A stretch of DNA of 64,000 bases, from positions 15,299 to 79,298 of the forward strand of contig JAFCFT010000002.1 of NCBI GenBank assembly GCA_017608505.1. The letters run 5' to 3'. The position numbers and the translations under genes were made by a program. The DNA comes from Candidatus Parvarchaeota archaeon (GTDB taxonomy: Archaea > Nanobdellota > Nanobdellia > WJKC01). The notes beneath the pieces are model-generated. The model was given only the letters and a program-made list of their open reading frames with translations. It did no database searches and was not told the DNA's origin. Numbering within the stretch: position 1 is the stretch's first letter; each line of letters begins with the position of its first letter. Positions 2,106 to 40,051 of this stretch are shown here, one piece after another.

Positions 2106-3077
2106 ATGATATGTCTTGGAATTGAAAGCACAGCCCACACTTTTGGAATAGGCATTGTTACGCATGACAAAATTCTTGCAAATGTAAGAGACTCTTACGC
2201 GCCAAAAGAAGGAGGGATTCATCCAAGAGAAGCTTCAGAACATCATGCAAGCGTTTGTGACAGCGTTCTTAAGCAGGCATTAAAAAAAGCAAAAATAAGT
2301 CTTGAGCAAGTAGACCTTGTGGCGTTTTCTAATGCTCCTGGCATTGCGCACATGCTTCGCGTTGGCGCAGTGTTTGCAAGAACTCTTTCAAAAGTTTTGA
2401 AAGTTCCTCTAGTGCCTGTTAACCACTGCATTGCGCATGTGGAGATTGGCAGGAGAACTGTAGGATGCAAAGACCCAGTGACTTTGTATGTTTCAGGTGC
2501 AAATACGCAAATAATTGCCTATCAAGGAGGTCTTTACAGGATATTTGCAGAAACTTTGGACATGGGTGTTGGAAATTTTATTGACACGTTTGCGCGTTAT
2601 GCAGGCATCCCATTTCCCGGAGGCCCGGTGATTGAAAAATTAGCTAAAAAGGGCAAGTATGTTGAGTTGCCTTATAGTGTCAAAGGCATGGACGTATCTT
2701 TTACAGGCATTTTAACTAATTTGCGCAACAAGCTTAAAACTCACAGATTAGAGGACCTTTGCTACTCAATGCAGGAGCATGTGTTTGCAATGCTTGTAGA
2801 AGTTTCTGAGCGGGCTCTCGCTCACATGCAAAAAAACGAGCTTTTGCTTACAGGTGGCGTTGCAAGCAACTCGCGCTTAAGAGAAATGTGCAAAGTCATG
2901 TGCAAAGATAGGGGCGCCAAATTTTATGTGCCAAAAAAAGAGTATTGCGTTGACAATGGTGCAATGATTGCAGTTCTTGGACTGCTTATGCATGATTCTG
3001 GCGCAAAATTCAAGAAAAAAGATTATTGCATTAATCAGAGGCAGAGAACTGACGAGGTGAAAGTGTTATGGCGCTAG
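2106..3077 (+). CDS. kae1: tRNA N6-adenosine threonylcarbamoyltransferase Kae1 (KEOPS)
   Basis: ASKHA fold motifs 'LGIESTAHTFGIGIV' and 'HCIAHVEIG' (metal-binding His), and 'VDNGAMIA'. It overlaps bud32 by 10 nt. Confidence 0.85.
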   Translation: MICLGIESTAHTFGIGIVTHDKILANVRDSYAPKEGGIHPREASEHHASVCDSVLKQALKKAKISLEQVDLVAFSNAPGIAHMLRVGAVFARTLSKVLKVPLVPVNHCIAHVEIGRRTVGCKDPVTLYVSGANTQIIAYQGGLYRIFAETLDMGVGNFIDTFARYAGIPFPGGPVIEKLAKKGKYVELPYSVKGMDVSFTGILTNLRNKLKTHRLEDLCYSMQEHVFAMLVEVSERALAHMQKNELLLTGGVASNSRLREMCKVMCKDRGAKFYVPKKEYCVDNGAMIAVLGLLMHDSGAKFKKKDYCINQRQRTDEVKVLWR

Positions 3078-26677: not shown

Positions 26678-29536
26678 TTAGGATAGCTTTATACCCATAT
26701 TTCTTGCTGTTAAATCAACTGCCATTCTATTGATATCTTCATTCATCGCCATGAATTTGCTGATTAAATTTGGGTTTTTGTCTAATAAGAAATCCATAAA
26801 TTTTTCTGTTAATCTTTTTAGAAGCCCTTTTTTAAATACCATTCCTAAATCTTTATCTTTGTTACCTTTAATCATTGTTGTAACAAATTCATCATGGGTT
26901 ACATTTTCAATATATTCTTCTATTAATCCTTTTTCATCATCAGATAATGATGATTCAAATCTTAAGTTAATTGCTTCAACAACTTCTTTAACAGTTACAT
27001 ATTCTATTTCTCTTTTTTTACCCGCACTAATTATTTCTTTTTCTTTTGGTTTTTCCTTTTTAACTTCTTTTATTTTATATTTAGTTACATAAATTTTTTC
27101 TAGTTCTTTATCAAGCATTCTAAGTTTACCAAAAGGGCTTAAATAATTAGCCATATAATACGAAAACCTAGCAAAGTTTCTTAAGTCTTTATCTCTGATT
27201 ACGAATAAATTGTTTAAGAAGTTAAATGTATTATTATACTTCACTAATAAGCCTCTGAATTCTCTTCTTTTCTTAACTTCATATTTATGCAATCTCTTTT
27301 CTATATTTTGCGCAATTTTTTCAAAATAGAGATTAGTTTCATTATTAAGTATCCCTATATTAAAATCGTCTACGTCTTTTTTAGTAAAAACATTCCAATT
27401 AATTAAATCAATATATATTTTACTTAGTTCTTTAGTGTCTAATCCTGTTCTATCAATAACTGTTTTTTTGTATCTTCTGAATGCTTTTATAATTTCTTTG
27501 TACGAGTTCGTGAAATCAATTGTTAATGTGTCCCTTTTGTTTGGGAATACTCTGTTTAATCTGCTTATAGTTTGCACAGCATTAATTCCTGAAACACTTT
27601 TATCAAGAAACATTGTGTGTAATAATGGTTGATTAAATCCATATTGAAACTTGTTGGCCACTATTAAAAATCTGTAATTTTTTTTCTTAAATTCATCCTC
27701 AATTTTTCCTTTTATTTTATTTAAGTTTGCTTCAGTATATACTTTATCATCACCTTTTTTTAATTTAATACTACCTGTAAACGCCACTAAAGTTTTGTAC
27801 TCTAATCCTTGGTCTTGTAATTCTTTGTCTAATATTAGTTTATACTTAACTGCTGCTTTGCGACTGCTAGTTACTATCATTGCTTTGGCATAATTATCTT
27901 TTATTGCATTCTTAGTATGTTCTTCAAATATTTTGATTATGATTTTCACTTTAGCCTTTATTATATTTTCATCCTCGTAAGCTTTGGCTTTAATTTTTTT
28001 AATAACTGGCAATGGAGGGTATTCTTTACCTTCTCCTATTTTTTCTGATAACTTGTATAGTGTTTCGTAAGGAATAATATTATCAGATACATTGAGTATT
28101 TTACCCTCTTTTTCTGCTTGATCCATACTATAAACATCAAAGGGTTTACCAAACATTTGTATTGTTTTATCACTTGGGGTTGCAGTTAATGCAATAAAAA
28201 CCAAGTTTGGAAATTTTCTCTTAACTAATTCTGCACTTAACTCGTCTTGGAAGTTTTCTTCATAAGGTTCAAAATAACCTAACATGTTTTTGTGTAGTTT
28301 ACCTGTTTGTGATCTGTGCGCTTCATCAATTATTATACAAATCTTTTTACCTTTCTGTTCTGTTAGTAATTCTTTTAACTTTGTGACTGAGAATTTGTGT
28401 ATGGTGCTTACCACTACTTTTTTATTTTTGTTTAATGCTGTTGCTAATTCTTTCGTTGTTTCAACATAGGCTACTAAACCTTTTTGTGTTTCAACGTTTC
28501 TTATTTCATTTCCTAATTGTGTGTTAAGATTAATCCTATCTGTCAGTATTACTATTGAATCAAACAAAGGTTTATTATCGTAATGTATGTGTCTTAGGAA
28601 TCTTTGGAGTATTGCTATTGTGTAACTTTTACCGCTTCCTGCACTATGTTGTATTAAGTATCTTAAATCTAGTTTCTTAGTTTTCGAATAATTCTTTAAT
28701 ATATCTTCTCTAATTTTATTTACTGTTCTTCTCTGATGATATCGTGGGAAGAAAAAAGTAGTAACTTCTCTTCCATCTGGAAGTTTTACTTTTATGGTAT
28801 GCAAGTAATGTTCTATTATTTCTATTAATGATTCTGGTGTTAGTATTTCATTATACAAATATTCTATATTATACTCATTCTCTACTTGCGGGTTAATTAA
28901 GTCTTTGTTAAACCATACGAAGTCTTCAACACTATTACTAATGAATTCAGTGGCTATCTTAACATTTTTAGTGTCTGCTGCGATATGTAGTATTGGTTTC
29001 TTAAATATGTTCAAGCTTTTATCCCTGTCATCAATGTATTGTATTACTGCGTCATCAACTACTTGACCAGTTAATGGATTCTTTAATTCTATTGTGATTA
29101 AGGCAAAACCATTTAGGAATAAAACAATGTCTATTGATTCCATTGTTTTTCTGAAACAGAATTGTCTAACGTAACTGAAAATGTTTGATTCATAACGTTT
29201 TAATGTTTCAGGATTATAACTCGTCTCGGGTTTAAAATAAATTAACCTAATTTTAATATCATTGATTGTTATTCCATCTCTTAAGACCTCAAATAATTTC
29301 TTTTTATCTAATTCTTTACTAATCACTTTCTTAACTTCTTTAAGCCACTTATTGCCAAAAAATGATTTTAATTCTTTAACTTCTTCTGGTTGGGTTCTGG
29401 TTAAGAACTCCATTAATATATTATCGTCGATGTTAATACTTAAATCGATGTCATCAGTAACCCGCTTGCGATAACCATGGGCTTCTAATCTTTCACAAAA
29501 ATGAGTCTCAAACTTCTCTTCTTTCGGACCAGTCAC
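26678..29536 (-). CDS. hsdR: Type I restriction enzyme R subunit (HsdR)
   Basis: 952 aa with SF2 motifs 'HSAGSGKS' and 'IIDEAHRSQ', and an N-terminal nuclease region. It overlaps hsdS by 4 nt. Confidence 0.85.
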   Translation of the reverse strand: MTGPKEEKFETHFCERLEAHGYRKRVTDDIDLSINIDDNILMEFLTRTQPEEVKELKSFFGNKWLKEVKKVISKELDKKKLFEVLRDGITINDIKIRLIYFKPETSYNPETLKRYESNIFSYVRQFCFRKTMESIDIVLFLNGFALITIELKNPLTGQVVDDAVIQYIDDRDKSLNIFKKPILHIAADTKNVKIATEFISNSVEDFVWFNKDLINPQVENEYNIEYLYNEILTPESLIEIIEHYLHTIKVKLPDGREVTTFFFPRYHQRRTVNKIREDILKNYSKTKKLDLRYLIQHSAGSGKSYTIAILQRFLRHIHYDNKPLFDSIVILTDRINLNTQLGNEIRNVETQKGLVAYVETTKELATALNKNKKVVVSTIHKFSVTKLKELLTEQKGKKICIIIDEAHRSQTGKLHKNMLGYFEPYEENFQDELSAELVKRKFPNLVFIALTATPSDKTIQMFGKPFDVYSMDQAEKEGKILNVSDNIIPYETLYKLSEKIGEGKEYPPLPVIKKIKAKAYEDENIIKAKVKIIIKIFEEHTKNAIKDNYAKAMIVTSSRKAAVKYKLILDKELQDQGLEYKTLVAFTGSIKLKKGDDKVYTEANLNKIKGKIEDEFKKKNYRFLIVANKFQYGFNQPLLHTMFLDKSVSGINAVQTISRLNRVFPNKRDTLTIDFTNSYKEIIKAFRRYKKTVIDRTGLDTKELSKIYIDLINWNVFTKKDVDDFNIGILNNETNLYFEKIAQNIEKRLHKYEVKKRREFRGLLVKYNNTFNFLNNLFVIRDKDLRNFARFSYYMANYLSPFGKLRMLDKELEKIYVTKYKIKEVKKEKPKEKEIISAGKKREIEYVTVKEVVEAINLRFESSLSDDEKGLIEEYIENVTHDEFVTTMIKGNKDKDLGMVFKKGLLKRLTEKFMDFLLDKNPNLISKFMAMNEDINRMAVDLTARNMGIKLS

Positions 29537-30843
29537 GCTACCACCTTCATTTTACCAGTAACACAATCATTAATTAAAACCCTCTTATATTCTTCTAACC
29601 TTTTGATTTCATCCTCAATGATATCTATAGCACTCTTTATTTTCTCAGTAAAAGAATCCAAAAAAGCAACAATAGCTTCTTGTTCTTCTTTGTCCGGTAA
29701 TGGAAAATAAAAATTAACAAACGTTTTTTGGTACAAATGAGAAATTGTTGAACCTGTCTTAATATATTCAATAAAATTATTAAAAAGTTCTGAATTAAGA
29801 ACCCAGAACATAAACTTTGGCACGTAAATATTATTTTCAGGTCTTATAACAAAAACACCACTATTAAGAGTGGCTTTTCCGTAAAAACCTTCAATAAATG
29901 CTACTTTTCCAATACTACCATCTTTTGTAACTAAAACATCTTCATTTTGAATTTGTATATATGGATCCTGTAAATATCTTTCTTCATCAACGTGATGACA
30001 GGTTTCCCAATTTATTTTACCATTTTCAAAATTGGTTCCAGTTATTAAATAAGGCCCTTCATCTCTATATTCCTTAGATGTTAATCCTTGCCAACCTATT
30101 CTTGATTTAACATAAGATGTTGTTTTTATTCTTTTAATTTTAAACCTTTTAGCAATATGATTTAGCCATTTTATTCCACTGTCTTTCATTTCAACATTAG
30201 GGTTTAATCCTTTAGTGACTGCTTGATTAATAACTATTTTCTCATACTCTTTCAGTAATTCAACTTGTTTACGCTTATTATTAATCACTTTATCTAACTT
30301 ACTGGTCTTATCATCCAAAAAAGAAGCAATAGCCTCTTGCTCGTCTTTTGGTGGGAAAGGTATTTTAAAATTCTTAACAATATTTTCATTAATATGTCCC
30401 TGGGCCCCTCCAATTGTTTTTTTTAAAAAATAATCTTTTGAATTTAGCAATATGTAAAATAAGAATCTTGGAATAAAAGAATTATTAGGATAAAGTGCTG
30501 TAACTGATTGGTTAGCTGCAGAATCAAATTTTAAATAAGCAACATTGGCTCTAGTGGCGCCAGTTAGAGCAATTAATACAGAATTCCTTGGAAATAATTT
30601 AGCTGAACTTTCACTTAAACCTAACTCAGTAATAAAAATATCTGCTTCATATAAATCACAATTTTGAATTTTACCTGATGGTAACCAAGGAATGTTTCCA
30701 CCCCAATATTCTGATTTGGCTGTTGATGGAGTCCCCCCACTCGAAGTATTTGCAAAATTTTTAATTTTTCTTAATCTCCAATGTTTTGGTAAAGACTCGA
30801 CATATTCATAATCCACACATTTATACTCCTGATAAGTTCTCAT
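29533..30843 (-). CDS. hsdS: Type I RM specificity subunit (HsdS), two TRDs
   Basis: Duplicated conserved spacers 'PFPPKDEQEAIASFLD' and 'FPLPDKEEQEAIVAFLD'. Confidence 0.85.
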   Translation of the reverse strand: MRTYQEYKCVDYEYVESLPKHWRLRKIKNFANTSSGGTPSTAKSEYWGGNIPWLPSGKIQNCDLYEADIFITELGLSESSAKLFPRNSVLIALTGATRANVAYLKFDSAANQSVTALYPNNSFIPRFLFYILLNSKDYFLKKTIGGAQGHINENIVKNFKIPFPPKDEQEAIASFLDDKTSKLDKVINNKRKQVELLKEYEKIVINQAVTKGLNPNVEMKDSGIKWLNHIAKRFKIKRIKTTSYVKSRIGWQGLTSKEYRDEGPYLITGTNFENGKINWETCHHVDEERYLQDPYIQIQNEDVLVTKDGSIGKVAFIEGFYGKATLNSGVFVIRPENNIYVPKFMFWVLNSELFNNFIEYIKTGSTISHLYQKTFVNFYFPLPDKEEQEAIVAFLDSFTEKIKSAIDIIEDEIKRLEEYKRVLINDCVTGKMKVVA

Positions 30844-31805
30844 GTTTCTTCACTCCTTGTTAATTCGAAGTCAAATTCTTGTAATTTTAAAGCACATTCA
30901 ATAATATAATTGATACAAAAATCTAAATCTTCCTTATTAAAGGTTATTTCTGTTGATGGCATATGAAAAATTGGCTCAGGAGAACCAATAGCCCATACTG
31001 GTTTAGGGATAATTAATGAAAACTTAATGAATTTTCTATAATCTAAGCCAAAAGCAAGAATCTTAACGGCTTTTTGCATAGACTCAATAGATTCCTTTAC
31101 TTTATCAATAAACTCAGATAATCTATCAACATCAAATACTTGATTTTCATTGTTTAGATTAGGAATAAAATTATTTCTTATATTAAAACTATTCAACCAA
31201 GTCATATCTTTTCCAAAGAAAAAAGGTGACTCTCCAAACCTTGTTCTTTTTGATGACTCATAATCCTTTAATAAAAACTCAAAAGCCAAGGAAAGAGCTT
31301 TAATAGATTCATTCTTATTTGAAGAGAATTCACTTTTAGCTTTCTCTAAATAACTTCTAACTTTACTATTAAAAACCAAATTTATAAGAGAGATATCCTT
31401 AACATCAAGGTTATAAACATTTTTACATAATTCTTCAAAAATATTATTTGCAATAATTCTAGATTCTTGAACATCTGTTTTACTTGAAAATATTCCATGA
31501 TGCTTTAAATTAACTCTTTTTCTTTTTAATTTATCTAAACTTGGTCTTGAACTAATTTCAACTTTTGGAGGATTATCATTTATCCAATCATTTATTTTAT
31601 CAAAATATTGCATAAAACTAAGATTATTTGAGTTTATGTCCTTATCTTCTAAGACTAATAAAAATGCTAGTTCAAGAGCATCATGATAATGTAAAAGTGC
31701 CACTGAAGATAACGGTTCTGGTTTTTTGGATTCTTCATTTCCTTTTTCAATTAAGAATTTAGCAAAAGCCAATCTTTTAAGTATAATTTCTCGAGTTAAT
31801 GACAT
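30840..31805 (-). CDS. Unknown protein embedded in the Type I RM operon between hsdM and hsdS (possible HEPN-like toxin/abortive-infection component)
   Basis: 321 aa, all-alpha in appearance, translationally coupled (4-nt overlaps) with hsdS. It has an Rx4H-like 'RVNLKHH' segment. No ATPase motifs. Confidence 0.35.
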   Translation of the reverse strand: MSLTREIILKRLAFAKFLIEKGNEESKKPEPLSSVALLHYHDALELAFLLVLEDKDINSNNLSFMQYFDKINDWINDNPPKVEISSRPSLDKLKRKRVNLKHHGIFSSKTDVQESRIIANNIFEELCKNVYNLDVKDISLINLVFNSKVRSYLEKAKSEFSSNKNESIKALSLAFEFLLKDYESSKRTRFGESPFFFGKDMTWLNSFNIRNNFIPNLNNENQVFDVDRLSEFIDKVKESIESMQKAVKILAFGLDYRKFIKFSLIIPKPVWAIGSPEPIFHMPSTEITFNKEDLDFCINYIIECALKLQEFDFELTRSEET

Positions 31806-31821
31806 TTTTAATCCTCCATAA

Positions 31822-33582
31822 TCATTTTATTAGCCCTAATTCTTTTAGCAGTTTTTTATTTTCTTCTTCTAAGTCTCTAAATTCTTTGATTACTTCTTCT
31901 TGCGACCTTAAAGGTTTATACTTATAAAAGTATTGAGTGAAATTAATCTCGTAACCAACAACCTGTTTCTTAATCTTATATGGTTTTTCAACTTCACGCT
32001 TTAAATATTCGTTAATATCTTCTTTTAGTGGGACATACTCAGCGTCATTAATCTTAACAATTTGAGTGACCTCCTTTCGTTCACCATTAACTTTTTTCAC
32101 AACAGTTTCTTTCTTAGGATTGCCGTTTTCATCAACATCAGTAAGTTCAAGAAATACCTTAGTATAACCAAAATCCTCATTATCAAAAATCTTGGAATTA
32201 TCAGACTCCTTAAATTCCTTATAAATCTCAAAAATCTTAACAATTTGGTCATCAGAGATATACTTACGCTTATTACCAAGACTCTTCTTCATAGGCTCAT
32301 AAAAATTAACAGCATTAATGAGTTGTACCTTACCCCTCCTTCTAGGTTCTTTCCTATTACGGATTATCCATCTGTACGTGGCTATACCTGTGTTATAAAA
32401 TAAATCAGTAGGTAAAGCAATAATTGCATCAATCAGATCATTCTCCAATAAATACTTCCTAAAATTACTTTCACCACTACCAGCATCCCCAGTGAATAAA
32501 GGACTGCCATTAAAAACAATAGCAATACCACTGTCCCCATCACTAGGATTCTTAAGTTTAGATAACATGTGCATTAAGAACAAAGTAGCCCCATCAGACA
32601 CGCGAGGAAGCATGTCCTTAGGGAAACGACCACTAGCATCATCAAGAATAGCTTTTTTATCCTTCTTCCAAGTAACACCGAAAGGAGGATTAGACAACAT
32701 GAAATCAAACTTAGCATTAGGAAACTTATCATTAGTTAATGTATTGCCAAATTTAATATTATCAGACTCTTCACCCTTAATTAACATATCAGAAGCGCCT
32801 ATCGCCCAAGTCTCAGGTTGCTTTTCCTGACCATAAACAATCACTTTAGCCTTAGGATTAACTTCTTTAAGAATAAATTCTTTAGCAATCACTAGCATAC
32901 CCCCAGTACCACATGCAGGGTCATAAATCTCTTTAATCTCACCATCCTTAATCTTAGAATCATTAATCAAAAGTTTAACCATTAATTTAATAACTTCACG
33001 AGGAGTAAAATGTTGTCCTGCTTCCTCACCAGTCTGCTCTGAAAAACGCCTAATTAACTCCTCAAAGATGTAACCCATCTTCTCGTTACTAATAACTTGG
33101 GGAGACAAGTTTAACTCAGAATACTGCTTTAATAATGGATACAACAATTTATCCTTCTCTAACTTATTTAACTCTTTGAAAAGACCAAAGTATTCAATAA
33201 TCATTTTAATATTATCTGTAAAACCATTCAAGTAACTCTTAAAATTCTCTTTAATCTCACTAGTTTTTTCAGCGCAAAGTTTTTCGAAAGTAAACTTAGA
33301 TTTATTATCAAATCCGAGAGAGGTAATTAATTTGTTATGAATAAACTTCCTCTTTTCCGCGTCATCCATTTTAATATTTTTAAGTTTTTTTTCAATTTCT
33401 TTCCTTTTTTCTTCTAAAACACACTCAATCCTTCTAAGAACAACAAAAGGCAATATAATGTCTTGATACTGATGTTGCTTATAAGTATCTCTTAATATTT
33501 CAGCAGATTGCCAGATAAAATTTACTTCAGCACTTATATTAATATGGTCTGCTTTCATATTATAAAACATAACATACACCAT
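31822..33582 (-). CDS. hsdM: Type I RM N6-adenine DNA methyltransferase (HsdM)
   Basis: 'DPACGTGGML' (motif I) and 'LSNPPFG' (motif IV), 586 aa. Confidence 0.9.
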   Translation of the reverse strand: MVYVMFYNMKADHINISAEVNFIWQSAEILRDTYKQHQYQDIILPFVVLRRIECVLEEKRKEIEKKLKNIKMDDAEKRKFIHNKLITSLGFDNKSKFTFEKLCAEKTSEIKENFKSYLNGFTDNIKMIIEYFGLFKELNKLEKDKLLYPLLKQYSELNLSPQVISNEKMGYIFEELIRRFSEQTGEEAGQHFTPREVIKLMVKLLINDSKIKDGEIKEIYDPACGTGGMLVIAKEFILKEVNPKAKVIVYGQEKQPETWAIGASDMLIKGEESDNIKFGNTLTNDKFPNAKFDFMLSNPPFGVTWKKDKKAILDDASGRFPKDMLPRVSDGATLFLMHMLSKLKNPSDGDSGIAIVFNGSPLFTGDAGSGESNFRKYLLENDLIDAIIALPTDLFYNTGIATYRWIIRNRKEPRRRGKVQLINAVNFYEPMKKSLGNKRKYISDDQIVKIFEIYKEFKESDNSKIFDNEDFGYTKVFLELTDVDENGNPKKETVVKKVNGERKEVTQIVKINDAEYVPLKEDINEYLKREVEKPYKIKKQVVGYEINFTQYFYKYKPLRSQEEVIKEFRDLEEENKKLLKELGLIK

Positions 33583-33602: not shown

Positions 33603-33821
33603 TTAACCATAAATAGTCCATGCTTCCTTTTTGAAACTTTTTTCAAACTCTTTAGTTCGAATTTCTTCAAATAGCATGTAAGACTCTAAAAAGACTTTCA
33701 TACATTTCTCACAAACAGGTATTCTACCATTTTTATTTTTTTTGTTACCTAAGAACTTATCTGTTTTAGACTTACAAAAGTGGCAATTGTACTTCTTTAT
33801 TCTTAACAAGTTCTTAATCAT
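33603..33821 (-). CDS. Small zinc-finger protein
   Basis: 72 aa, 'CHFCKS...CEKC'. Confidence 0.35.
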   Translation of the reverse strand: MIKNLLRIKKYNCHFCKSKTDKFLGNKKNKNGRIPVCEKCMKVFLESYMLFEEIRTKEFEKSFKKEAWTIYG

Positions 33822-33894: not shown

Positions 33895-34602
33895 TTATTC
33901 TGTAATATTGAGTGCTACAAGTAATTTACCTGCTGGTTTTAAGATTACCCTGGTGTTCCTTCCTTCTCTTTCCATTTCAATTAAACCACGCCGCTTTAAA
34001 GATTTAAGACTAGCATTAATTTTTTGTGGTTTATGAATAAAAGGCAACTCACCATATCTATCCTTAAAATTTTCACAATATACCCTTCTAAAATAAGTAC
34101 AATTTTCTACTTCACCATTAAATGAATTAAGAATCTTAAGAATATTCCATTGTACATTAGTTAAATCTGTTGCTTTAGGAATTTTAAACATTGGCAATTC
34201 ATTTACCAAATCCTTAGTTTTAGCATCCTTTAATATACGTTTATCAAGAACATAATAACCTGTTGCATTAATTAAAATTATAGCAATACTAGCTGCGGCA
34301 GCCATAATATTGGTGCCCATGGTTATATTAAAATAAAAATTAATATTGGAATTGTTTTTTAATTCAATATCTGCAGTTTTTTTTACTTTTATAATTAAAT
34401 CAGTTAATTCAAATGGATTAATAGTAATTGTAGAAACAGAATCACAAATAGCTAATTTAATAATCTTTTCTGCTTCTTTAGAAACATTCTTAGTGCCTTC
34501 AGAATCAATAAGGTAAACTTTATCTATATCCTCGTAGTGCTTTAAACCAGTAATAATTGGTTCAATTCCGCTTTTTCCAACATTAATAAAATGGATATTC
34601 AT
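33895..34602 (-). CDS. CARF-domain plus winged-helix transcriptional regulator (Csa3-like)
   Basis: The N-terminal Rossmann-like 'IHFINVG...VYLIDSEG...NITMGTN' parallels the Csa3 CARF 'DLTMGMR' ligand loop. The C-terminal wHTH is 'LKSLKRRGLIEMEREGRNTRVILKPAG'. Confidence 0.5.
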   Translation of the reverse strand: MNIHFINVGKSGIEPIITGLKHYEDIDKVYLIDSEGTKNVSKEAEKIIKLAICDSVSTITINPFELTDLIIKVKKTADIELKNNSNINFYFNITMGTNIMAAAASIAIILINATGYYVLDKRILKDAKTKDLVNELPMFKIPKATDLTNVQWNILKILNSFNGEVENCTYFRRVYCENFKDRYGELPFIHKPQKINASLKSLKRRGLIEMEREGRNTRVILKPAGKLLVALNITE

Positions 34603-34647: not shown

Positions 34648-35334
34648 CTATAAATATTTAATCATTAAATCCAATAATTCATCGAAAGCGTATAAAGATA
34701 ACAAAAAAATATTAAAGATTACTAAAAACCCTCCAGGACTTTTTTTATTAGTTATAAGATCAGTACTTGAATATCGTTTTTTTATTGGATCGTGATGTTT
34801 ATCTCTTTCATCAGATAAAAAATCAAAAATAAAAAAAAATCTTGGATTTACTGCATCGTATTTTTTTAAAGTAGAAAATAAATTCTTATCCAATTTTACC
34901 CCACTCATTATTATTCCAGGATTCTGTAATCGCCCAACAGTCTCCTTATACATATCTTTGTATTTACAAAAAATAGTAAAATTCTTCGCATAAATAGACA
35001 TTCTGTCACCCTTTTCTTTAGGATCTATATCTATATTTAACTTGTTCAATATTACTTTGAAAACTCTTTTAAAAACAGCATCATTCAATGCACTGACAAT
35101 ATCAACAAAATAAGCAGAATTATCACTACTAATAATCCTTTTTATATCATTCTTTTGATCAATTAAATATTCTATCGCTGCTTCTAATTCTTTTTTTTGA
35201 ATAGAAGTTAACCAAGAAATTTTTTCAAGTTTTTTAATAATGTCCTCTTTAACAAAGTCAATATTATCCAATACACCTTTTATTGATTTTTTTATTTCTT
35301 TAAGACTACAGTCACGACTACTCATTAAAATCAC
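34648..35334 (-). CDS. hypothetical protein with a C-terminal transmembrane helix
   Basis: 228 aa with a hydrophobic C-terminal 'GGFLVIFNIFLLSLYAF'. It overlaps the downstream Type IIG gene by 4 nt. Confidence 0.35.
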   Translation of the reverse strand: MILMSSRDCSLKEIKKSIKGVLDNIDFVKEDIIKKLEKISWLTSIQKKELEAAIEYLIDQKNDIKRIISSDNSAYFVDIVSALNDAVFKRVFKVILNKLNIDIDPKEKGDRMSIYAKNFTIFCKYKDMYKETVGRLQNPGIIMSGVKLDKNLFSTLKKYDAVNPRFFFIFDFLSDERDKHHDPIKKRYSSTDLITNKKSPGGFLVIFNIFLLSLYAFDELLDLMIKYL

Positions 35335-37397
35335 TTATATAAATTATCTAATTCTTTTTTTAGTAAAACTATTTGTGATTCTAACAAATCAATTTTATTT
35401 TGCAATTCTTTTGCCTTTAACATTTTTTCTTTTTGTTTATCAAAGCGTAGTAATGGAATCCTCAAATTTTTTAGTGTATCTATTGGTAAGTGCTTTATCA
35501 CTCCATAACTAAAATTCTCGATTTGTTTTTTAACATAATCGGTTTTTAATAATGAATGTAAATAATAAGGATTAATATCTTTTTTTGGTCTTAAAGCAAC
35601 AAGAGAACTCGAGTGAACTCCTCTATAATCTTCATTAAATATAGCGGTTTTACCTATAGTACCAGTAATTGAAAATAGTATGTCGCCTTTATTTAAATTA
35701 AATTTAAATTTTGAAGAATCGATATTGACTAAATCTTTATTAACAATCGTTCCTGCATATAAATTTAATATTCTAATATACTTTATTTTGCCCTTCCCAT
35801 AATCTTTTTTTGGAACGTGGATCCCAGGGTAGATTTCACATAATTCTTGCAATCTTACAATTTTAATATTATTCTTGCGATACGTTTCTTCAATTTTCTT
35901 TATATCATTCAAATAAGGACCAAATGACAATATATAATTATAACTTTTGATTTCGTTTATACATACTAATTTTCGTAACTTTCCTAAAATCAAAGGTTTA
36001 TCTTCTTCGAATTTTTTAATATACTCTACAATCCCTTCAAATTCCATTTTTAATTTTTCATTAGCAACATCTTTATTTGAGTAATCTTCTTTACAATCAA
36101 TCATCAAAATATCGTTTTTGGTCCTACAATTATCAATAATCATTATTGATGATTGAATATGCATTAATGGGGCCCAAATATTTATAGGCAAGTTTATAAT
36201 CGCTTTAATTGAGTATTCTTCTAATAAATATTTTCTGAAATGCTTATTTGTATTGTCAAATAAAAAACCATTGGGAACTATTACTATTAATCTACCTTTT
36301 GGATTTAATGATTTAAGTGCAACATAAATAAAAGCAGCTTCAACACTTTTAAATTTGGTTAAATCATTTAATTTATCCTTATTTGGCCTTAATCCAAATG
36401 GAGGATTCAAAAATATTACATCAAATTTTTCATGAATCTGGTCATTAAGAACATTTTTAATTTGTAACTCAACATCAATATTTAAGAGGTACTTTATTAA
36501 TTTTATAAAATAAATATTATTCGAATTTTTTTCAAAACCAGTTAATTTAAAATTGTTCAATAAAGCATTTTTTACTAAAACTTGACCTTTTTTGCAATTA
36601 AAATCTGCAAATGATCTAGAATCCTCTTTTATTAATCCCAAAATAAAGTCAACCAATATATTTGGAATATAAGATTCGTCAAATTTACTATTTATTAATT
36701 TGTAATCATATACTATATTTATTATTTTTTCCAATGTTTTTTTATCCAAACTAAGTATATTTAAACTTTTCATTAATAATTCCAAATCGTTTTCTTTGTT
36801 AGTAAAAAGTTTATTAATATTCAAATATTCGGGATCAATATTAAGTTCTCTTGATAACTTTTTTGATAACTCATTTATTTTATCTTTAAATTCATTTAAA
36901 TTTTTGTATTCAAATAAATTTTTAGACCTACCATATTTAATTAACGCCAATAATTTTATAATTATAACTGTACCATTTTCTCTATAATTCCTTAGGTAAT
37001 TAAATATTCTCCAAATTTTACTCGTAACATCAGTATCAAAAGACTCAAGTAATGGAATTTCAGGTACTTCACTAATTTTCTTATTTTTTTTCCTAAAATA
37101 GATAAAATTATCTCCGTTAGTTAATATTCCATAAGGAAAATTAGAATTTAACAACAATTCATTCAATTGAATTTTTGATAAACTACTATCAATCAACTTT
37201 TTAATTTCAATTAAAATATAAGGTTTTGAATCAACATAACAAACTAAATCAGCAATATATTTTACACCATTTTTAATAAAACAACAATTTTTCTCAAATA
37301 ACACATTAACGTCTTTATTAAATCCTGCTCTCAATTTTTCAATAACTTTATTAACAGTTTTTAATCTCCAATTTGGGCGATACTGATTTTCACTCAT
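35331..37397 (-). CDS. Single-chain Type IIG-like restriction-modification enzyme (PD-(D/E)xK nuclease + N6-adenine MTase + HsdS-like TRD)
   Basis: N-terminal 'DLVCYVDSKPYILIEIKK' (D...EIK), 'FLNPPFG' methyltransferase motif IV, and a C-terminal TRD with an HsdS-like conserved tail. 688 aa. Confidence 0.6.
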   Translation of the reverse strand: MSENQYRPNWRLKTVNKVIEKLRAGFNKDVNVLFEKNCCFIKNGVKYIADLVCYVDSKPYILIEIKKLIDSSLSKIQLNELLLNSNFPYGILTNGDNFIYFRKKNKKISEVPEIPLLESFDTDVTSKIWRIFNYLRNYRENGTVIIIKLLALIKYGRSKNLFEYKNLNEFKDKINELSKKLSRELNIDPEYLNINKLFTNKENDLELLMKSLNILSLDKKTLEKIINIVYDYKLINSKFDESYIPNILVDFILGLIKEDSRSFADFNCKKGQVLVKNALLNNFKLTGFEKNSNNIYFIKLIKYLLNIDVELQIKNVLNDQIHEKFDVIFLNPPFGLRPNKDKLNDLTKFKSVEAAFIYVALKSLNPKGRLIVIVPNGFLFDNTNKHFRKYLLEEYSIKAIINLPINIWAPLMHIQSSIMIIDNCRTKNDILMIDCKEDYSNKDVANEKLKMEFEGIVEYIKKFEEDKPLILGKLRKLVCINEIKSYNYILSFGPYLNDIKKIEETYRKNNIKIVRLQELCEIYPGIHVPKKDYGKGKIKYIRILNLYAGTIVNKDLVNIDSSKFKFNLNKGDILFSITGTIGKTAIFNEDYRGVHSSSLVALRPKKDINPYYLHSLLKTDYVKKQIENFSYGVIKHLPIDTLKNLRIPLLRFDKQKEKMLKAKELQNKIDLLESQIVLLKKELDNLYK

Positions 37398-37478: not shown

Positions 37479-38051
37479 TTAAAATAATAGCTTACTCACT
37501 TTCCTCTTCACAGCAATCAACGAAGACTCGCATATCCCGAACTCCTTCGTCACTTTTGACATGCTTATTTTCTCTTTGTTCTTCTTGGCAGTGTCGTATA
37601 GGACCACTGCAGCTAAAACCATTGGGTCGTTGTTTAAGCCCATTTTTTCGATTAATTCGATTTTCCTAATTGCCTCGCTTATAGTTTTGCCACTCAAGCC
37701 CAGATTGTTGCTGTAGCGGGTTATCAAACCAGACATCTGCAGCGCCACAACACTAAGTCTTAAGCTCTTAGTGACTGTCTTGTAAGTCCTGAACAAAGAG
37801 TACTTGTCCGTGTCCAGGGCGCGCGCAATCTCCTTCATACTCACAGTATACCCGTCGCGCTTGCACACGTAATAAGTCAGTGCTCCTATTGCCCTGTCAG
37901 TGAATATTCCCTGGCTCTTGCCAAAATTAATTAGTTCCCAGTATAATCGCATAACTTCGCGCTTAACGCTCCTTGGCAGGCATAGTATGTTGTTCAGCAT
38001 GTCAAACTCCCTGCCAGCAGTAAGCACGCGGTTGATTTTTGGAGTGCCCAT
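37479..38051 (-). CDS. TFB-like protein, cyclin-fold core only (no N-terminal Zn-ribbon or B-reader)
   Basis: Two cyclin repeats align to the TFB core ('LCLPRSVKREVMRLYWE', 'RAIGALTYYVCKRDGYTVSMKEIA', 'ITRYSNNLGLSGKTISEAIRKIE'). The likely start is at Met15 (MGTPKINR) with 'CCTTTATATA' about 25 nt upstream. Confidence 0.65.
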   Translation of the reverse strand: MGTPKINRVLTAGREFDMLNNILCLPRSVKREVMRLYWELINFGKSQGIFTDRAIGALTYYVCKRDGYTVSMKEIARALDTDKYSLFRTYKTVTKSLRLSVVALQMSGLITRYSNNLGLSGKTISEAIRKIELIEKMGLNNDPMVLAAVVLYDTAKKNKEKISMSKVTKEFGICESSLIAVKRKVSKLLF

Positions 38052-38234
38052 CGTAGAATTATTGTGAATAAGTAGTATATAAAGGAAAAACAACCGAAGT
38101 AGTTAAAAATTAACAATACAATATATTTTATAAAGATAGTACTGAAATCTAGTCTTTCAAAAATCTATAAGCCAAAATTTAAGTCTAGGTACGCTAAGGA
38201 GAAGTCCTCCAAATAGGTCGCTCAAGTTTCTAAA

Positions 38235-38579
38235 TTACTTTTTATGAATACTCCAACTGAATTTTAATAGGCCTAAATTAACCTCAAAACCAAATGTATG
38301 TTTAAATTTTGGTTGATTTTCTACGATGTTAATACCTTTAGGTAAAATTCGTGTCACAAAAAATATTTGAGCTCCATTTATATTACCTATTGCTCCATAA
38401 CTCTTAAGAATGCCTAAATCATTAAGATAATTATATGCTAAATTAATTCTCTTTCCATTCCATTTTGTTTCATTAATCACATCTCGTGTTCCAACACTAC
38501 TTTTGCCTTTATTCACTAACTCGTTATAAAAGAAAAGTAACAATTCACCCGCATCTTTTTGAACTCCCATTTTCATCAC
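38235..38579 (-). CDS. hypothetical protein
   Basis: 114 aa ORF overlapping the next gene by 4 nt. Confidence 0.3.
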   Translation of the reverse strand: MMKMGVQKDAGELLLFFYNELVNKGKSSVGTRDVINETKWNGKRINLAYNYLNDLGILKSYGAIGNINGAQIFFVTRILPKGINIVENQPKFKHTFGFEVNLGLLKFSWSIHKK

Positions 38580-40051
38580 TTCAAATTTATATTATACACA
38601 AAGAGGTATGGATTAAAATATGCATCATAGCCTAATTCGAATACTAATTTTACAGACGTAACTGACATTGGAACATCTTTAAATAATACATAACCTTTCT
38701 TTGTAACACCAGGATAAATTTTAGAAAATATTGTATCTAATGTTCCACCGAAAGTACTTTCATACTGGTTTCTTTGGTTGTCTATAATTACCATGCCAGA
38801 TGGTGAAAAATAATCACTTTCACTCCCAATATTTTTAACTTCCATATCTACTCTAAAGTATTGTTTTTTATTACTCCATTTGTTATATAGATTAAAGAAA
38901 CCAGCTTTTGTTACAGTTACTTCAAAATTATCATTACTTATTTTTTTATTAACTATTATTGCATTTTTATTATATTCTTCCTCAGCCAATTGCTCATATG
39001 TGTATGTTTTTTTGTTTTTCAAATCGAAAATATAATCTCCAATAATTATTTTTGAGATATCTACATTTTTAGGAACGTTTTTAAAAGCCATATAACCAGT
39101 TTTTTTAGCTCCACTTTCAATCTCTCCTCCTTCAAACTTTGACCTATATGACCTTTCATATTGATTACTACTAGAATCAATCAATTTTGTATTATAAATA
39201 TAGAAAGAATTTGTTTGTTTTGCCTCAACTTCTAAATCGACTCTTAAAAGGTTTTCTGCAGATATAGAACTATAATCTGTAAAGAATCCATATTTAGTAA
39301 TTCTTATTTTAAAATTATCATCTTCTAATTCCAGTAATGTTTGTTTTGCATTTTTATTATATTCTTCCTCAGCCATTTGCGTAAGTTCTTCTTTTGTGTA
39401 AGTTGGTATCTGTACTACCGTATCTTCTATATGTAATTCTTTTCCATCTGAAGTTACAAAGGTAAGAACTGCCCTACCAAAAGAAGAAATGCCTTTTTGG
39501 ATCTCAGATATTGGTACCCTCCATTCATACGCTTTTCCAATATCTTGACCTGTAAACATAAATTGATAATCAACAAATTCCGATGCCTTTACATCAAATT
39601 CTTTATAATACAGGGAATTATTTAAATTATCAAATATTTCTACCTTCACATGTCCATCTCCAGGTGTGTTTTTCCCATATACATCTTCAAGTAAAAAATA
39701 AAATCTAATTATTTCTCCTTCTTTAACTGTTGCAAAGTAATTTATATTAACAGGCGAATATTTAGAAGCGGTTGTTTGGGATGTATGGGATATTTGTATG
39801 TTTTGTAGAATGTTGGTAGGCGAATATTTAGAAGCGGTTGTTTGGGATGTTTGTGTTTTTTCAGCTGGAATTCCAGTTTGACCTTGCTCTTGAACACAAC
39901 CACATATAAAAACAATTCCAACAATCAAAATTACAATTAATCTTGAATTCATGAATATTTGTTTTTCTATTTTGTTTACCATTTCATAAATTTTATAAAA
40001 TCTTTTTCTTTTAAAGCTTTTTATAATAACAACCCCAAAGGCGGATTGCAA
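38576..40051 (-). CDS. Secreted/surface protein with internal repeats (DUF4352-like Ig-fold repeats)
   Basis: N-terminal TM/signal 'LIVILIVGIVFICGC' with lipobox-like Cys. A duplicated 'SQTTASKYSP.NI' segment is encoded by a 34-bp DNA repeat at 39757/39820. A duplicated 'AEEEYNKNA...NDNF..T.TK.GFF' domain is also present. Confidence 0.45.
   Translation of the reverse strand: MQSAFGVVIIKSFKRKRFYKIYEMVNKIEKQIFMNSRLIVILIVGIVFICGCVQEQGQTGIPAEKTQTSQTTASKYSPTNILQNIQISHTSQTTASKYSPVNINYFATVKEGEIIRFYFLLEDVYGKNTPGDGHVKVEIFDNLNNSLYYKEFDVKASEFVDYQFMFTGQDIGKAYEWRVPISEIQKGISSFGRAVLTFVTSDGKELHIEDTVVQIPTYTKEELTQMAEEEYNKNAKQTLLELEDDNFKIRITKYGFFTDYSSISAENLLRVDLEVEAKQTNSFYIYNTKLIDSSSNQYERSYRSKFEGGEIESGAKKTGYMAFKNVPKNVDISKIIIGDYIFDLKNKKTYTYEQLAEEEYNKNAIIVNKKISNDNFEVTVTKAGFFNLYNKWSNKKQYFRVDMEVKNIGSESDYFSPSGMVIIDNQRNQYESTFGGTLDTIFSKIYPGVTKKGYVLFKDVPMSVTSVKLVFELGYDAYFNPYLFVYNINLK

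Follow-up and report, generated by a model that had tools for sequence, protein, structure and literature searches.

Genes for HEPN-domain proteins have long been linked to restriction–modification (RM) systems. At least 16 clades of RM-linked HEPN genes were described in 2013, with the anticodon nuclease PrrC as the worked example, and HEPN genes of the abortive-infection (Abi) type were found to be patchily scattered, often in or near RM operons (PMC3710099, including its Table 1). PrrC is almost exclusively RM-embedded (bioRxiv 10.1101/2024.01.29.577857), and HEC-08, an embedded HEPN gene of the DUF3644 type, has been validated as a defence gene that requires its motif histidine (Payne et al., bioRxiv 10.1101/2024.01.29.577857). 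Here, we analyzed a stretch of 64,000 nucleotides from a Candidatus Parvarchaeota archaeon (contig JAFCFT010000002.1; hereafter, the window), in which an uncharacterised gene lies between hsdM and hsdS of a Type I RM operon. We refer to this gene as X. The X protein very probably belongs to the HEPN superfamily, and its closest relatives occupy the same position in Type I RM operons of other archaea. To our knowledge, very few defence effectors other than CRISPR systems have been studied in archaea.

Operon structure and HEPN assignment of X

The initial annotation of the window described a block of hsdM, X, hsdS and hsdR with a 16-nt gap between the hsdM stop and the X start and a 4-nt overlap of X with hsdS, and re-reading of the sequence found every factual statement in that description correct (Table 1). 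It had also regarded X as a part of the operon, a view borne out by the same-strand packing, by the ribosome-binding site ahead of X and by the ATGA sequence shared by the X stop and the hsdS start. At the next junction, the GTG start codon of hsdR overlaps the hsdS stop by 4 nt. Pfam and PADLOC searches identified the components that define a Type I RM system, namely co-oriented genes for HsdM, an HsdS with two target-recognition domains (TRDs) and an HsdR with a nuclease and a superfamily 2 (SF2) motor. A truncated hsdM was considered and ruled out by alignment to its homologues: the window HsdM is full length and aligns end to end with the HsdM proteins of related operons, with a shorter internal linker as the sole difference in length.

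The surroundings of X have a GC content of about 26%, and long open reading frames (ORFs) are improbable there. Full-length homologues of X form 114 clusters at 90% identity, and a profile of its N-terminal domain retrieved 2,332 clusters (50% identity) at E ≤ 1e-3, of which 1,360 reached E ≤ 1e-10. Given the long frame in this background and the size of the homologous family, we concluded that X is a real gene and not a chance ORF.

To obtain a structural view of the protein, we used AlphaFold2 with a 55-sequence alignment. The resulting model has a predicted local distance difference test score (pLDDT) of 90.6 and a predicted template modelling score (pTM) of 0.84, and consists of two parts, residues 1–135 and 136–321. 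It is entirely helical, as the initial annotation had surmised. The first part contains helices H1 (residues 5–25), H2 (32–54), an insert helix (64–77), H3 (87–103) and H4 (109–131). A Foldseek search of the Protein Data Bank (PDB) with this part returned AF_0298 (2hsb) as the top match, with a probability of 0.98, a target-normalised template modelling (TM) score of 0.72 and a root-mean-square deviation of 3.1 Å over 130 columns. The next match was the AMPylated HepT toxin (7ae6_B; probability 0.91), followed by further HepT structures (6m6u, 7bxo, 8xdj), the HEPN protein 4nqf and Las1 (7y16); every PDB match of appreciable probability was a HEPN protein. The published definition of the HEPN domain is a bundle of four helices, with an insert that separates helices 2 and 3 and an Rx4-6H motif where helix 3 ends, and an acidic residue on helix 2 is a further described feature (PMC3710099). 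The N-terminal domain of X corresponds to this definition in helix order, in its insert helix, in the position of R97-x4-H102 at the end of helix 87–103, in the acidic residues of helix 2 and in the closing helix 109–131.

Furthermore, the predicted catalytic residues are strongly conserved. The initial annotation had pointed to the segment RVNLKHH (residues 97–103) as an Rx4H-like motif, and the reverse complement of positions 31500..31517 indeed reads AGA GTT AAT TTA AAG CAT. Conservation was counted on 263 cluster representatives, of which 262 or 257 were aligned at a given position. Within the motif, R97 was found in 261/262 sequences, both K101 and H102 in 262/262 and G104 in 255/262; on helix 2, the corresponding counts were 256/257 for H41, 253/257 for D42 and 256/257 for E45. 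R97, K101, H102, H41, D42 and E45 are the most conserved positions of the family, each present in at least 98% of the aligned sequences. The absence of NTPase motifs, also proposed in the initial annotation, agrees with the lack of any match to an NTPase family in Pfam, NCBIfam and PADLOC. A match of X to a housekeeping family was looked for and not found. The Rx4H proposal of the initial annotation is thus borne out, and the other outcome that it had named as refuting, a lack of conserved catalytic residues across homologues, did not occur.

Several results weigh against the HEPN assignment. The Foldseek E-values for the N-terminal domain are weak (0.5–5), and four-helix bundles are a simple fold. 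X had no significant family match in Pfam, NCBIfam or PADLOC, which leaves it without a profile link to a curated HEPN family. Comparison of X with a HepT/DUF86 alignment of 33 sequences, built from the HepT gene of one of the loci described below (L129), gave an hhalign probability of 0.1, and sequence searches of the PDB with full-length and N-domain profiles returned chance matches only. When 55 members of the family were searched against Pfam, sub-threshold matches, which in themselves point towards HEPN, to PF05168 (HEPN; 0.032) appeared in 3 of the 55 and to HEPN_DZIP3 (1.6e-4) in 2 of the 55. A match to ribosomal protein eL14 with the shared string RRRMNIKH (E about 0.05) was dismissed as spurious. 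Judged by sequence, X lies outside every named HEPN family, and membership of the superfamily is still compatible with the absence of profile matches.

The C-terminal domain was modelled separately with AlphaFold2 and yielded a pLDDT of 85.2. It carries the conserved motifs DYExSK, SPFFFG, GxDY and KLQEFDF. A Foldseek search of the PDB with this domain gave no significant match; the best TM scores were 0.35–0.45 to the HEPN protein 4nqf, at a probability below 0.2. An hhalign comparison of the N-terminal and C-terminal domains of X revealed no profile similarity. Given this negative result and the weak resemblance to 4nqf, we do not claim that the C-terminal domain is a degenerate second HEPN copy. 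The domain was found solely in the architecture of about 300 residues, always fused to an X-type HEPN domain, and no instance of its shuffling onto other effectors was seen. It is presumed to be a regulatory or target-recognition module, and it could be a new sensor module.

The X family and its RM-embedded clade

To place the gene in context, we examined 130 loci taken from scans of genomes and metagenomes, a further set obtained through exact-protein look-ups, and 8 viral contigs; individual loci are designated by L numbers. At 58% identity or more to the window X, hsdS lies directly downstream of the homologue in every locus, and hsdM lies upstream wherever the contig extends that far. Two more distant loci, L004 (53%) and L054 (48%), share this hsdM–X–hsdS context. 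The called X and hsdS genes overlap by 1–8 nt in L131, L133/L134, L135 and L137. This survey of related Type I RM loci thus found homologues of X in the same slot of about a dozen operons, drawn from different lineages of archaea. In a neighbour-joining tree, the RM-embedded loci and the window X form one clade, the named sources of which include Ca. Ethanoperedens and a metagenome-assembled genome of the Methanobacteriaceae.

Other cargo is present in several of these operons (Table 1). The hydrophobic protein and the KwaB-like protein of L131 constitute a Kiwa-like pair nested in an archaeal-type Type I RM operon, and the Type I operon of L136 contains two different HEPN genes together with GmrSD.

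The clade also contains copies of X that have parted from the RM genes. In L002 (Ca. Argoarchaeum ethanivorans), an intact X lies directly downstream of an hsdM remnant at 2696..2996, in which only about residues 10–72 and 554–581 are left, and neither hsdS nor hsdR is present; we regard this locus as a case of RM decay with retention of the embedded gene. Since X is intact beside the decayed hsdM, tolerance of X does not strictly depend on the RM complex. In L003 (Aenigmatarchaeota), a solo X is flanked by genes for a tRNA synthetase and an HD-domain protein, and in L139 the homologue is near Type III-like RM genes. These three loci are secondary losses nested within the RM-embedded clade. 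The archaeal clade therefore amounts to a natural experiment, with the same effector fixed in a Type I RM operon, beside an RM remnant and alone, a setting in which one can ask if an embedded RNase is under the control of the RM system or is just its cargo.

Beyond this clade, the family is patchily spread across archaea and bacteria and many phyla, including Methanobrevibacter and Parabacteroides of the human gut. At 25–47% identity, the members belong to many phyla of bacteria and to some archaea. Most members lie outside RM operons and have no common partner gene. Across the 130 loci, no conserved neighbour, no conserved adjacent small gene and no MNT partner was found, and all-against-all clustering of the neighbours in 48 genome loci detected no conserved partner gene, either antitoxin or sensor. 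The single family match of X is PHROG 37995 (phrog_37995), a family of unknown function, at 4.4e-60 over the full length. A fold search with X in BFVD gave no informative match, and a phage origin of X was dismissed, as tblastn found no match in GenBank phages and the viral occurrences were confined to 8 IMG/VR contigs.

Defence genes recur in other contexts as well. An hsdM–X arrangement followed by MNT-HepT was found in L129, and a Type I operon of Bacteroidales (L035) has the order X–DUF6978–DUF1828/1829–hsdR. In L138, the X homologue is near genes for CARF and DUF2779 proteins and a C5 methylase. A dense defence cluster is on a human-gut plasmid of Parabacteroides distasonis (L148; NZ_OY725763.1, 21538-36431), where a gene for an SNF2 helicase (DrmD/HmaA-like) and one for a 1,133-aa N6 methylase are followed, 4 nt later, by the X homologue (WP_009274872.1, annotated as hypothetical), and then by bSEFIR (3e-69), a hypothetical gene and an MkoA-like helicase gene; the helicase–methylase pair is DISARM/Hma-like. 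Five of the seven plasmid matches came from Streptomyces. On one Streptomyces goshikiensis plasmid (L149; NZ_CP115939.1), an X homologue of 26% identity follows a DUF4231 gene by 160 nt, and a zeta-toxin gene is nearby.

Table 1. Positions of the window operon features, of the domains and motifs of X, and of cargo genes in related operons
Feature	Locus	Position	Strand	Description
hsdM	window	31822..33582	minus	586 aa; first gene of the four-gene block; Pfam N6_Mtase 2.6e-65, HsdM_N 3.4e-19; PADLOC MTase_I 1e-212
Ribosome-binding site	window	31812..31817	minus	GGAGGA, read from the sequence; within the 16-nt hsdM–X spacer, six bases 5' of the X ATG
Gene X	window	30840..31805	minus	321-aa ORF with ATG start; N-terminal HEPN domain and C-terminal helical domain of unknown fold
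HEPN domain of X	window	31401..31805	minus	residues 1–135; AlphaFold2 model, Foldseek
H41-D42-x-x-E45	window	31671..31685	minus	HEPN helix 2; predicted neighbours of the Rx4H motif
Rx4H motif	window	31500..31517	minus	R97-V-N-L-K101-H102, at the C-terminal end of HEPN helix 3, then G104; predicted catalytic centre
C-terminal helical domain of X	window	30843..31400	minus	residues 136–321 (186 residues); separate AlphaFold2 model
X/hsdS overlap	window	30840..30843	minus	ATGA, 4 nt; X stop (TGA) on hsdS start (ATG); translational coupling, from the sequence
hsdS	window	29533..30843	minus	436 aa; two TRDs; Pfam Methylase_S 2.5e-45 (two stretches); PADLOC Specificity_I 2.1e-127
hsdR	window	26678..29536	minus	952-aa restriction/translocase subunit; Pfam HSDR_N, SWI2_SNF2, ResIII, T1R_D3-like; PADLOC REase_I 2.4e-42
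Kiwa-like cargo	L131	5447..7011, between hsdM and X		189-aa hydrophobic, probably multi-pass membrane protein; KwaB-like protein (PF16162, 1.3e-06)
RhuM cargo	L131	between hsdS and hsdR		RhuM
GmrSD cargo	L135, L136, L137	after hsdS		GmrSD
Schlafen/AlbA_2 cargo	L001	between hsdS and hsdR		Schlafen/AlbA_2 protein
DUF3644 cargo	L136	4052..5140, between X homologue and hsdS		DUF3644 HEPN gene; PF12358 4.9e-56; RNKIEH motif; HEC-08-type

The window operon is part of a low-GC island that extends from about 26.7 to 40 kb and has a GC content of 22–30%, versus 34–43% in the flanks. Besides both RM systems of the region and a CARF gene, the low-GC stretch encodes a short TFIIB-repeat protein (37479..38093) and a DUF4352 protein (38576..40051). 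It fits a defence island that an archaeal genome gained by horizontal transfer; the archaeal origin is also indicated by the TFIIB and HMG-CoA synthase genes of the window. The second RM system is a single chain of 688 aa (35331..37397, minus strand) that combines HSDR_N_2, N6_Mtase and Methylase_S, that is, a Type IIG-like enzyme. Its gene is overlapped over 4 nt by a 228-aa ORF (34648..35334, minus strand), for which searches of Pfam, NCBIfam, PADLOC and PHROGs returned no family; this ORF may be another embedded or coupled uncharacterised gene.

Just upstream of hsdM, a gene on the minus strand (33895..34602) encodes a CARF and winged-helix protein (PADLOC CARF3 2.5e-37; Pfam HFX_2341_N and DUF6293_C). 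It is followed by a 72-aa ORF with two CxxC pairs (33603..33821, minus strand; zinc-ribbon-like). In L138, a CARF gene with HFX_2341_N is likewise followed by a CxxC ORF, of 77 aa, and the X homologue is about 2.7 kb downstream of that CARF gene; a BLAST comparison of the window pair with the L138 pair showed no significant similarity. Where the window has this 72-aa ORF, L131 (3275..3439) and L133 (4832..4993) have unrelated ORFs of 53–54 aa that overlap the hsdM start, with sequences such as KNITLKVDEKLYKAYKEYCKQKGLIISRQFE. By sequence, these short ORFs resemble a ribbon-helix-helix controller protein.

Proposed function of X and alternative explanations

We consider it reasonably probable that X is a self-regulated HEPN ribonuclease (RNase), an effector of abortive-infection-type defence, which a mobile Type I RM operon has taken up. 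By analogy with Rx4-6H HEPN proteins, it would act as a metal-independent endoribonuclease, and its active form would probably be a dimer that joins two Rx4H motifs. The protein's own C-terminal domain may keep it inactive until an infection-related cue is received; X would then cut cellular or viral RNA and stop growth, providing a second line of defence of the abortive-infection type. In the lineage of the window, X would be a fixed, translationally coupled part of a horizontally mobile hsdM–X–hsdS–hsdR operon. As the gene is fixed in a Type I RM operon, an RNA-targeting effector would be co-expressed with a DNA-targeting system.

Besides the HEPN identity itself, two lines of evidence point to this function. 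First, guilt by embedding argues for a role in defence: X recurs in RM operons that carry Kiwa, RhuM, GmrSD, Schlafen/AlbA_2 and DUF3644 cargo, and in other defence clusters, the low GC content of the window island fits horizontal acquisition, and HEC-08, a different embedded HEPN protein, defends in a manner that depends on its Rx4-6H motif. Second, X appears to be autonomous, with no conserved neighbour, a C-terminal domain that is always fused to it, and copies that are intact beside decayed RM genes (L002) or solo (L003). Because most members of the family stand alone and are tolerated, and because X outlives its RM partners within the clade, an intrinsic off-state is the simplest explanation, for which the C-terminal domain is the obvious candidate as the seat of both auto-inhibition and cue sensing. 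Other observations count against a defence effector. Many neighbours of the distant members are ordinary metabolic or housekeeping genes, and the enrichment of defence genes around them is modest. In addition, the family is rare on viral contigs and plasmids, with 8 IMG/VR contigs and 7 plasmids.

An alternative explanation, which we regard as possible but unlikely, is that X is held latent by its RM partners in the manner of PrrC: the HsdM/HsdS or HsdMSR complex would bind X, and viral anti-restriction would release the RNase to act on tRNA or another RNA. PrrC itself provides the precedent, and HEPN genes linked to RM have been proposed to act in this way (PMC3710099; PMC12707154). The slot between hsdM and hsdS is fixed, with overlapping or near-abutting starts and stops, across about a dozen operons of different archaeal lineages, and the other embedded cargo varies and is usually placed elsewhere, between hsdS and hsdR. 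However, the hsdM–hsdS interval is also a general insertion spot, as Kiwa in L131 and DUF3644 in L136 both lie there beside X. Most of the family is not RM-linked, and X has no NTPase sensor domain like that of PrrC. Moreover, the intact X of L002 after RM decay and the solo X of L003 belong to the same clade, which argues against strict dependence on the RM complex. In its minimal version, to which we give equally little credence, this explanation would make X an NTPase-less HEPN RNase whose novel C-terminal domain docks on HsdM2–HsdS and which is fired by a viral anti-restriction protein, a PrrC-like guardian that arose independently from different parts. In this version, the invariant residues H41, K101, H102 and R97 might even make up an RNase-A-like active site in a single subunit.

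Less probable still is that X is the toxin of an unrecognised toxin–antitoxin (TA) or addiction module that stabilises the RM cassette, so that loss of the operon would release the RNase. The part of the antitoxin would then fall to the C-terminal domain in cis, to HsdM/S or to some small ORF or RNA that has escaped annotation. HEPN RNases are common as TA toxins, and HepT structures are among the best structural matches of X; in addition, the window copy is on a mobile low-GC island, one homologue is close to MNT-HepT (L129) and another is near the zeta toxin of the Streptomyces plasmid. However, none of the 130 loci revealed a conserved adjacent small gene or an MNT partner, solo copies are found among housekeeping genes, and in L002 the RM genes have been lost and X is intact.

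A non-defence role, either as a housekeeping RNA-processing enzyme or as a non-catalytic accessory or regulatory methyltransferase subunit that is merely co-transcribed with the RM genes, is the least probable of the explanations, for although some HEPN proteins are processing enzymes, Las1 is among the structural matches and several homologues have genes for tRNA synthetase, tRNA deacylase and FtsZ around them, the family is scattered patchily over archaea and bacteria, its neighbourhood is nowhere conserved, the window copy is on a low-GC island, the catalytic-type residues are invariant and X recurs inside RM and other defence clusters.

Comparison with known HEPN systems

Among the known systems closest to X is HEC-08/DUF3644 (EC042_2821-type). 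In both, a single gene encodes the effector, a putative one in X, whose Rx4-6H HEPN domain is N-terminal and precedes a C-terminal domain of unknown structure, and both are nested in methylase-containing defence operons, those of the HEC-08 type being Hma and Type I RM. The two even meet in L136, where the DUF3644 gene adjoins the X homologue between hsdM and hsdS. However, X does not match PF12358, its motif is R-V-N-L-K-H-x-G with an invariant lysine rather than R-N-x-x-x-H, and its C-terminal domain is helical and not a zinc ribbon. HEC-08 has been demonstrated experimentally, whereas X is known from sequence and a model.

X shares with the anticodon nucleases PrrC and RloC an Rx4H HEPN nuclease domain, here a predicted one, and a gene inside a Type I RM operon; the prr locus of E. 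coli serves as the model of how RNA targeting can back up DNA restriction. The architecture is different: in PrrC, an ABC-ATPase at the N-terminus precedes a C-terminal HEPN domain, whereas the HEPN domain of X is N-terminal and no NTPase is present. prrC lies between hsdS and hsdR and X between hsdM and hsdS, and PrrC is nearly always RM-embedded, unlike most relatives of X. X was therefore rejected as a PrrC homologue, given the missing ABC-ATPase, the N-terminal HEPN domain and the different operon slot.

The closest solved structures are those of HepT (DUF86) from the type VII TA system MNT-HepT and of AF_0298-like HEPN-T proteins (2hsb, 7ae6, 6m6u, 8xdj), which, like the N-terminal domain of X, consist of a minimal HEPN domain, about 130 residues long, in which the motif lies near residue 100. 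In contrast to HepT, X has no MNT partner, no match to PF01934 and no profile–profile similarity, and it carries an additional C-terminal domain of 186 residues. The single-protein Abi genes (AbiD/AbiF/Abi_2, AbiJ, AbiU2 and AbiV) resemble X as stand-alone HEPN genes with family-specific extra domains; however, X matches none of their Pfam models, and those families occur mainly in bacteria, the RM-embedded X clade mainly in archaea.

Taken together, X would act like these known proteins but fits none of the named families. It represents a HEPN family of its own, so far unnamed, whose C-terminal domain is also new, and is an example of a known theme rather than a new kind of system. A HEPN gene in an RM operon will not surprise the specialist, and the contexts of X put forward one more candidate for the list of defence genes recognised by their embedding. 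Even so, this is a large and uncharacterised family with many archaeal members: its roughly 2,300 clusters are unnamed and lack a model in Pfam, NCBIfam and PADLOC as well as an assigned function, and the HEPN assignment with its invariant motif gives them a concrete, testable activity. The series of embedded, orphaned and solo copies makes regulation of an embedded RNase by its RM host directly testable.

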